Positions 6,001 through 9,000 of a stretch of DNA of 38,594 nt are shown one piece after another. Within the stretch, counting starts at the first letter, position 1; each line of letters starts with the position of its first letter. Made by a program: the position numbers. The stretch is from Escherichia phage phi467, in the sequence record LN997803; one strand, written 5' to 3'.

Positions 6001-9000
6001 CGCCCAGACATCGATCTGCACGGTAATTCTTGATTCAGCCTGACCATCAAGCACATCAGATGCCGTGTCAGACACCACAGAAAACACCAGCCATGGCGGA
6101 GATACCGCAGGCTTTCCCTCCGTCAGCGGGACCACATAAGGATAAACCTGTCCTCCGGCCAGTTGAGACAGCAGGGAATACAGTGTGGTCTCTCTCATTT
6201 ACTTAAGACCTCATCAATAGCCTGATTCATTCGCTGTATGGCAATCTGTGCTGCCAGTTCCTCTGTCGTATCGAAAGCCGGGCGAATGAACGGATGCGCG
6301 GGCATGTTTATCGTTCCCAGCTCCACAAAGCGCCAGTAAAACGCATTTCGGGGATCGCTGGCTTTCATGCTGTTATCACTGTTTCCGGTTCGCAGGTTCC
6401 GTCCGCGAATGTGGACACCCGAGATAATTTCCCCCCGACGCTTTGAACGCTGAGTGAGAACAACCACATTTTTTTTTCAGTTTTCCGGTTCGCTCCGGCG
6501 CACGTTCAACAACTGCATCCCGCATAACTTCAGCACCGGCACGGGTGGCATCGCGCAGAACCTTATTGTTTTCTGCCCTGCTGAGCGTCTCCAGATCCCG
6601 TGCAATATCCGCCAGACCTGAAAAATCAAGACTGAAATCCATCACACATTCCCCTTCTGAGAACAGAGTATCTCAAGCCGGGTGGCACGGGCATCCGGTA
6701 TCGGCGGACCGTCTATACTCAGAATCGCGCCTCTGAATGCACCAGTCAGCACTTTCAGACATGAAGTTGCTGTCACATCTCGCCGGAATCTCATCCAGAC
6801 CCTCACTGTAGCCTGAGCAGTTTCTGCGCCTCCGGATATTCTCTCCCTGCCACTGATCCCCTTAACTTCTGCCCATATGGTTGCCCCTTCCGTCATTGTT
6901 TCCACAGGGTGCCCTGATGGAGACCGAACGGTGGTGGCATTCAGAATAACCACACGATCACGTAATCTTCCTGCCTGCATGAATCCTCCTATGTCCCGGG
7001 ATGAAACCGATACATCCGCAGTCCGGTATAGAAAAAATCAGGCACTGCATCCTGCATTTCCCTGTTCTCGTACCAGTAGCCAACCAGTTGCATAAGACGC
7101 AGTTTTATCAGAGGTGTTATTACAAGCCCGGTCGTATCCTGCTCAGAAACAGTTTCATCGTAAAGCGTCCGGTTTAAAAACTTTTCAGCCTCTTCCCTGG
7201 CAGCAGCCAGATACATCATAAGAAGAGAATTCTCCTGTTCATTGTCATCATCAATCCGGCACTGAACACGAAGCTCTTCCAGAGTGGGCATCATTTGGGC
7301 AACCTCTATGAATGCTGTTTTTTAGACTTATCAGCCCCCCGCGCAACAGGTGTTCTCTTATCAGAGACAATCCCAGCTGCAGTGGCAATTTCGCGTACCC
7401 GTTCGGGTAATTCTTTATCTTCATACTCACCGGCCCGAATAATCTCAACACGCATACCGTCCGGTGACCATTTCAGATCTTGTTTCAGGATCATGATTCT
7501 TTCACCTGTCAGAACAGGGGCGCACTTCTGCGCCCCCTGAATGATTACGCCGCTGCAATCTTCAGCAGTTTGATGGCCTGCGAATCGACCAGCATGCCGC
7601 CGGTGCGCTTGGTGGTATAAAAACCGACAAACGGTTTATTGGTGTACGGGTCACGCAGAATGCGGGTACCGATACGGTCAACGATGGTGTAACCCCGTTT
7701 GAAGTTACCAAATGCAATGGCTTTCGCATCAGCGGCGATATCCGGCATCTGTTCGTTTTCAGCGATACCGTAACCCGCCAGAGAGGACGGCTGCCCCAGC
7801 TCCAGCCCCGGACGCCACAGATAGTTACCCTCGCTGTCTTTCAGCAGACGGATGGCAAACAGGCTGTTGTTGTTCATCATGAACTTCGCGCCGGTGCGGT
7901 GTGCCTTACGCAGCGTGTAAATCAGTTTGATAATGGCGTCTGCGGTCACCGCCGTCGCGTCGCCGGATACAATATGCTGAAGTTTGCCGAACGCCCGGAC
8001 CTTATCGGTTTCATCCGTGGATTCATACGCCAGGAACCCTTTCGGCTTCTTGGTACCATCGCCGGTGGTAAAGGCAATTTCTTCCTGTTCGGCAAATTCG
8101 GTTGCCAGCTCGCTGTTGATCCAGGCCTCCACGTTGAAAAAGGCATCATCCAGCATTTTCTGGGTGGCCTGCGGGTTACCGTAGATTTCCCCCATGAAAG
8201 GTTCAATCAGGCCCAGTTTTGAGGTGGCAGTCTGGGAGCGCGCGTCAGTCTCGCCAACCCATCCGGAAGCCGTACCGCCCAGATTCACCAGTTTTTTGTA
8301 GTCGGAACCGCCAACGGTGATCACCGTGGCTTCCTGGCGCATCACCACTTCATCTTTCAGCAGGGTGAGAATGTTGCGATCCAGTGCTTCCGGCACGGCA
8401 TAGCCACCGTCTTCATCGGTGCCCACCTGCAATGCCTTACGCTCCAGATCGCGCAGACCGTCTTCACGGCCTTTACGCAGGAAGCCCACAAACGCCTCTT
8501 TATGCTCGGTGGCCAGTTTATTTTGCGCACCACCTGCCGGACGTTTCAGCTCAAGCAGCTCTTTTTCAAGGTCGCTTTTGAGATTTTCCAGCTCGCTGAG
8601 TTTTCCGTTCAGGGTTTCCACCTGCCCGGCAAGTTTGCCTTTTTCCTGCTCAATCGCCTCCACGCGCTTGTCGTTCTTTGCTTTGAAGTCGTCAAACTTC
8701 TGCTGCAGCTCCTGCGCGACCTGTTCGACATCTTTAATATCAACCGCCATCGTATTTCTCCTGATTAGAAGTTCAGATTTTTCAGTGCATTCAGTGCAGA
8801 GCCCACATCCTCAGCGTCGCGCAGGGACAGTGCGCCATAGCCCCCGGCCATGAATGCTTTGGCCTGGGTACGGGAGAGTCCGACATCACGCAGGACTCTT
8901 TCGATTTTTTTCTGTTCGGGAATTTCCCCGCGGGCCAGTGCGTTCTTGACGTCGCTGATCCGCGCCTCGTCGTTAGACGGGAACGTCACCAGGCTGACTT

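Follow-up and report, generated by a model that had tools for sequence, protein, structure and literature searches.

The apparent split of an HK97 gp10-like gene at a nine-A run in the Stx2f phage sequence phi467 is very probably a homopolymer sequencing artefact

Is the HK97 gp10-like gene of Escherichia phage phi467 truly divided between two reading frames, or does the division come from the way in which its sequence was obtained? The question is raised by a T9 run on the plus strand of record LN997803, the whole of which (38,594 nucleotides) was analyzed and is referred to here as the window. On the minus strand, which is the coding strand, this run (6469-6477) is a homopolymer of nine A's (A9), and it marks the site of an apparent +1-nucleotide insertion, all relatives with an uninterrupted run having A8. 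Upstream of the run, the minus strand codes for an N-terminal fragment of 88 aa (6376..6642) from an ATG at 6642 to a stop codon at 6376-6378. The ATG and the stop codon of the upstream head closure gene overlap as ATGA, and an alternative GTG start for the same frame is found at 6645. This upstream frame contains ERTGKLKKKCGCSH and runs through ...ERTGKLKKK into 31 unrelated residues up to the stop, i.e., residues 1-57 of the fragment are native and the remainder is out of frame. The fragment is identical to CUW01218.1, deposited as a hypothetical protein of Escherichia phage phi467. The downstream frame, KKNVVVLTQRSKRRGEIISGVHIRGRN...EVLSK, ends at a stop codon at 6195-6197. It provides the C-terminal part (KKNVVVLTQ...EVLSK; 6195..6476, minus strand), whose sequence matches residues 56-148 of WP_000347790.1 at 100% identity. 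As the downstream frame is +1 (or -2) relative to the upstream one, one A fewer, or two more, would yield a single ORF.

As deposited, the locus has no single uninterrupted ORF of about 150 aa, and such an ORF is obtained only with one A removed. If the run is A8, 6195..6642 (minus strand) is a single 148-aa ORF for an HK97-gp10 family/Neck1 (tail completion) protein. The proposal of the first-pass annotation, made from the sequence alone, that removal of one A joins both parts was borne out, since the 148-aa product of the repaired gene and WP_000347790.1, the protein annotated in the nearest prophages under the name "HK97-gp10 family putative phage morphogenesis protein," are 100% identical. 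The repaired gene likewise does not differ from its intact homologues. In the protein collection, the exact 148-aa sequence occurs on at least 1000 contigs. No homologues that are naturally two genes, which that annotation had considered as an alternative, came to light: the full-length members among those listed for a 2073-member cluster are all 148-149 aa long, and each annotated copy in the closest prophages is one 447-nucleotide CDS.

The repaired protein matches PF04883 over residues 12-109 (42.5 bits for a cut-off of 21.4), and this one domain spans the break, which lies at residue 57/58. The N-terminal fragment alone also scores above the cut-off (28.5 bits), and no hit was obtained with the C-terminal fragment by itself. 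The repaired protein also matches PHROG 5, "tail completion or Neck1 protein," over residues 1-147 (E = 1e-34). A sequence search of solved structures returned nothing significant, the best entry being 9mu2_P, "HK97 gp10 family phage protein" (E = 0.42). The neighboring minus-strand genes follow the canonical order of the connector region, from the head-tail connector (adaptor; 6989-7294) through the head closure gene (6642-6980), the gp10-like gene, the gp17-like tail completion gene (5854-6198) and the Ig-domain major tail gene (5089-5793) to the chaperones G/T and the tape measure. The connector, head closure, gp17-like and major tail proteins are each 100% identical to the annotated reference. 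Once the run is taken as A8, the gene is unambiguously a member of the HK97-gp10/Neck1 family.

The length of the run in other sequences was surveyed with an 81-nucleotide probe centered on the A9. The probe matched 859 complete E. coli genomes, none of them (0/859) at 99% identity or more, and all 30 matches listed span 80 nucleotides. No A9 with the flanks of the window or with the dominant flanks was present among the 859 complete-genome matches. Flanks with no more than one mismatch occur in only seven probe matches, each of which carries an uninterrupted A8. In the four closest prophages, direct inspection of the plus strand gave T8, and a pattern scan of IMG/VR in which 7 to 10 A's were allowed returned four contigs, in each of which the run is A8 and the 148-aa ORF unbroken. 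JGI metagenome contigs, scanned with this pattern, gave no match. In all 11 other sequences with an uninterrupted run, the run is A8 and in frame, and the gene is intact. The 88-aa product of the A9 allele was found only in phi467 in the protein collection, and exact-product look-ups for this fragment, for the window-specific variant of the portal and for the frameshifted gpM-like product yielded no second contig.

Most homologues do not have a long run at all. About 850 other E. coli homologues carry AAGAAAAA at this position, where a G interrupts the run, and the codons of the dominant E. coli variant, CTG AAG AAA AAT, leave only A5 (e.g., positions 331-343 of L010, from E. coli 203740). An uninterrupted A8 is confined to a small group consisting of the Stx2f prophages, F719, TB4019, TB4328, and UMNK88. 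Because the G-interrupted run dominates in E. coli, the long run represents a synonymous change that arose recently in a small lineage, and it is not a conserved element. Two unrelated public assemblies have 9-base stretches over the same codons, AAGAAAAAA in L004 (GCA_027494145.1; 10160-10175) and AAAGAAAAA in L005 (Logan ERR13107190; 865-880), both of which correspond to the common AAG background plus one base. L004 is error-ridden, with split portal, protease and head-closure genes and two further 1-nucleotide gaps in the gp10-like gene, and it looks like an uncorrected, error-prone assembly. Given the AAG background and the many frameshifts of L004, we did not count these two sequences as support for a real A9.

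The window corresponds to a Stx2f-converting lambdoid prophage. Over positions 1-31290, it can be aligned with the Stx2f prophage of E. coli 2015C-4136CT1, which has stxA2f and stxB2f, and both toxin proteins are encoded in the window too. LN997803 was described as a "partial VT2f phage sequence of 38,594 bp" assembled in silico from whole-genome sequencing of EF467, an E. coli O26:H11 strain from hemolytic-uremic syndrome (HUS) (Grande et al. 2016, PMC5189129). For the three HUS strains of that study, reads were obtained with 400-bp kits on a flow-based platform, the Ion Torrent PGM, and SPAdes was used for assembly; the phi467 construct was verified only by four long PCRs and RFLP (restriction digests), and the paper describes no base-level verification (PMC5189129). 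A later EF467 assembly, GCA_013172765.1, is mentioned in PMC11489412. Raw reads of EF467 are archived in ENA under PRJEB11886 / PRJEB12203.

Ion Torrent reads the length of a homopolymer from signal amplitude and is unreliable at long runs. On the PGM, longer homopolymers are called less accurately (about 68% per read at 6-mers), A and T flows are the most error-prone, and under-calls dominate at long homopolymers (Bragg et al. 2013, PMC3623719). The window was aligned base by base with the prophage of 2015C-4136CT1, taken as the reference, and three further genomes were checked. Compared with these near-identical, independently sequenced genomes, the window shows an excess of indel-only differences at homopolymers. 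Five homopolymers have lengths specific to phi467 relative to L003, L006, and L007, and three of them break two genes besides the gp10-like one. The flanks of L008 (strain F719) match at three of the five, and there it sides with L003, L006, and L007.

The five sites are spread over the window. In the gpM-like tail gene on the minus strand, the run at 898..902 (A5 on the plus strand) is A6 in L003 and L006, where the gene is intact, and A8 in the error-prone L007; in the window, the gene is frameshifted. The gp10-like gene is broken at 6469..6477, where the T9 of the plus strand is T8 in relatives. In a hypothetical gene on the plus strand, an A6 run at 17799..17804 is A7 in three relatives and causes a first frameshift, and an A9 run at 18259..18267 is A8 in four relatives and causes a second one. 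The fifth site, a T3 run at 26906, is T4 in relatives; it is intergenic and breaks no gene. The only two 9-base runs of the window, at 6469 and 18259, are both 8 bases long in relatives. Two of the seven 8-mers shared with the reference are discordant and the other five (669-676, 4707-4714, 13078-13085, 14970-14977 and 18123-18130) are called correctly; for runs of 4 bases or fewer, there is one discordance among more than 21,000. Outside the shifts, these broken genes encode proteins with 100% identity to the reference. The converse idea that the references and not the window are at fault was rejected, as three to four independently sequenced genomes agree and their ORFs are intact. A different pattern was seen for the intergenic run at 23274-23279, which is T6 in both the window and F719 (L008) and T5 in three close relatives; this difference may be a true polymorphism, not an error.

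Several other genes of the record are damaged. The gpM-like "phage tail protein" gene (786-1123, minus strand; 113 aa in relatives), frameshifted at 898-902, corroborates the earlier observation of two homopolymer-associated breaks in the structural module, and its break is probably the same kind of artefact as that of the gp10-like gene. The hypothetical gene of 306 aa (17441-18358, plus strand), which adjoins stxA2f, has two opposite single-base run changes: its middle 155 codons are out of frame and its end is in frame, and, each read in its own frame, the segments show 100% identity to the reference. The portal gene (9393-10607, minus strand) shows a complex net deletion of 27 nucleotides at 10062-10072 that is not a homopolymer event. 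There, four residues (KSRR) stand in place of thirteen (NPVAYAREAISLA), and the remainder of the 413-aa portal is identical to the reference; either a local misassembly or a real lesion could account for this.

The right-hand part of the window, 30350-38594, was compared with the finished genome of the O26:H11 strain 11368. There are 0 substitutions and 2 indels in about 8.2 kb. One is a one-base deletion (AA to A; 30590..30591, plus strand) that frameshifts the integrase in a stretch otherwise identical to strain 11368, and the other is a change of CCC to C at 32876. This region is of host type and contains genes for an integrase, a DUF4760 protein, a second integrase, a response regulator and an ATP-binding protein. 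Because it has no substitutions relative to the chromosome of strain 11368, the deposited record probably continues beyond the integrase of the prophage and takes in host DNA or another element that carries an integrase.

It is highly probable that the ninth A is an artefact of base calling or assembly, with an Ion Torrent overcall kept in the consensus and a true gene that is intact. Indels unaccompanied by substitutions, centered on runs and obtained on a flow-based platform, are the signature to be expected of Ion Torrent errors. The EF467 prophage would then most likely have A8 and an ordinary, intact 148-aa neck/tail-completion gene; the PGM would have called the 8-base run as 9, and the miscall would have been carried through the SPAdes consensus into the deposited sequence. 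We infer from these comparisons that the extra base is probably in the reads and not in the DNA of EF467. It had been pointed out at the outset that a homopolymer error, with A8 in reality, has to be excluded first; this caution was justified, as the evidence favors sequencing error. Both affected 8-mers are over-called, contrary to the under-calls that dominate at long runs on the PGM (PMC3623719), which is a point against an artefact. So is the correct length of five of the seven shared 8-base runs. Newer chemistry and base-callers may differ from the error profile of Bragg and colleagues, and natural replication slippage also hits long A/T runs, so that homopolymer enrichment alone cannot separate error from mutation.

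We therefore weighed the possibility that the A9 is real, replication slippage in A8 having inactivated the neck/tail-completion gene of the EF467 Stx2f prophage. The lesions of the gpM-like, portal and integrase genes would then be further steps of prophage decay, and the prophage would be defective, with Stx2f still produced and heads and tails not properly joined. Long mononucleotide runs are natural hot spots for frameshifts, and A8 would be a newly created fragile site, recent in the lineage, because most homologues carry the G-interrupted sequence. Further genes of the record are damaged too, and PMC5189129 reports no experiment showing phi467 to be inducible or infectious. Nevertheless, we regard a real mutation as unlikely. 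The damaged genes have no accompanying substitutions, their proteins being fully identical outside the shifts, and two opposite frameshifts lie within one 920-bp gene. At least five indels would have to have occurred independently, essentially without substitutions, and two of these would fall in one gene. The adjacent host DNA, with its two indels and no substitution relative to O26:H11, is also unlike mutation accumulation, and the A9 allele is absent from the other sequences searched (859 genome matches, the protein collection and IMG/VR). Ion Torrent, in contrast, is known to yield exactly such differences (PMC5189129, PMC3623719).

A functional A9 was considered as well, i.e., a recoding or phase-variation site at which RNA polymerase slippage (-1 A or +2 A) or a ribosomal +1/-2 shift in some transcripts would keep the dose of neck protein low or switch it on and off. 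Nine-A/T runs do serve transcriptional slippage in some bacterial genes, and the same window has an A-run that is a genuine site of programmed -1 frameshifting. At the end of gene G, in ...GTT AAA AAA AAG TAG, the heptamer A_AAA_AAG (4703-4715, minus strand; T8 on the plus strand at 4707-4714) lies directly before the stop codon and opens the T frame (VALPGMRFLMM...), which would yield a fusion of the tail assembly chaperones G and T. The 8-base run at 4707-4714 has the same length in the reference and is one of the concordant 8-base runs. The gp10-like run behaves differently. Neither the run nor the two-frame layout is conserved, the run being interrupted by a G in some 850 E. coli homologues and all relatives being in frame. 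A-rich heptamers promote -1 frameshifting, whereas the frame required here is +1/-2. Ribosomal -1 frameshifting on the gp10 run was rejected because the -1 frame, by reading, lacks the gp10 C-terminal sequence and has no family sequence. Rescue of the deletion type by E. coli RNA polymerase was undetected on any poly(A) run studied (Koscielniak et al. 2018, PMC6260861), and the direction of the shift thus does not fit the motif. The transcriptional or translational slippage put forward in the first-pass annotation thereby finds no support. A recoding or phase-variation function of the A9 is most improbable, and we give hardly any credence to the related scenario of a real A9 in EF467 with polymerase slippage giving little full-length neck protein and a newly evolved A8/A9 tract serving as a reversible, phase-variable switch of virion completion in a Shiga-toxin phage.

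The split has little biological weight, since this neck/tail-completion gene is an ordinary one that is widespread in phages. It matters as a flag of data quality, LN997803 (phi467) serving as a reference Stx2f phage in later comparative studies. The record has apparent frameshifts in at least four genes (the gpM-like, gp10-like, stx2f-adjacent 306-aa and integrase genes) in addition to the odd portal lesion. Anyone calling the Stx2f phage of this HUS strain defective, or mining LN997803 for recoding sites, would probably be misled, and its frameshifts and portal lesion should not be interpreted without resequencing.

The locus can be compared with four known systems. It resembles the HK97 gp10/Neck1 (Ne1) family of siphoviruses by its PF04883 and PHROG 5 matches and by its place between the head closure and gp17-like genes, and differs in that the phi467 gene lies in two frames as deposited. 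With the programmed -1 G/GT frameshift of long-tailed phages, it shares an A-run in the same structural module; however, the G/T site is of conserved length, uses -1 and joins two open frames, whereas the gp10 site is found only in phi467, needs +1/-2 and is in frame in relatives. The likeness to bacterial transcriptional slippage at A9/T9 is that nine A's are within the range in which RNA polymerase slips, but the run and out-of-frame layout of phi467 are not conserved, and deletion-type rescue was not detected (PMC6260861). With miscalls of the Ion Torrent/454 type, a source of artificial frameshifts in assemblies, the locus shares a documented platform, a +/-1 change in an A/T run, other window-only run lengths and indels without substitutions, although Ion Torrent miscalls are mainly under-calls (Bragg et al. 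2013, PMC3623719) and the two affected 8-mers of phi467 are over-called to 9. The "split" belongs to this well-known class of homopolymer sequencing artefacts and represents no new biology.
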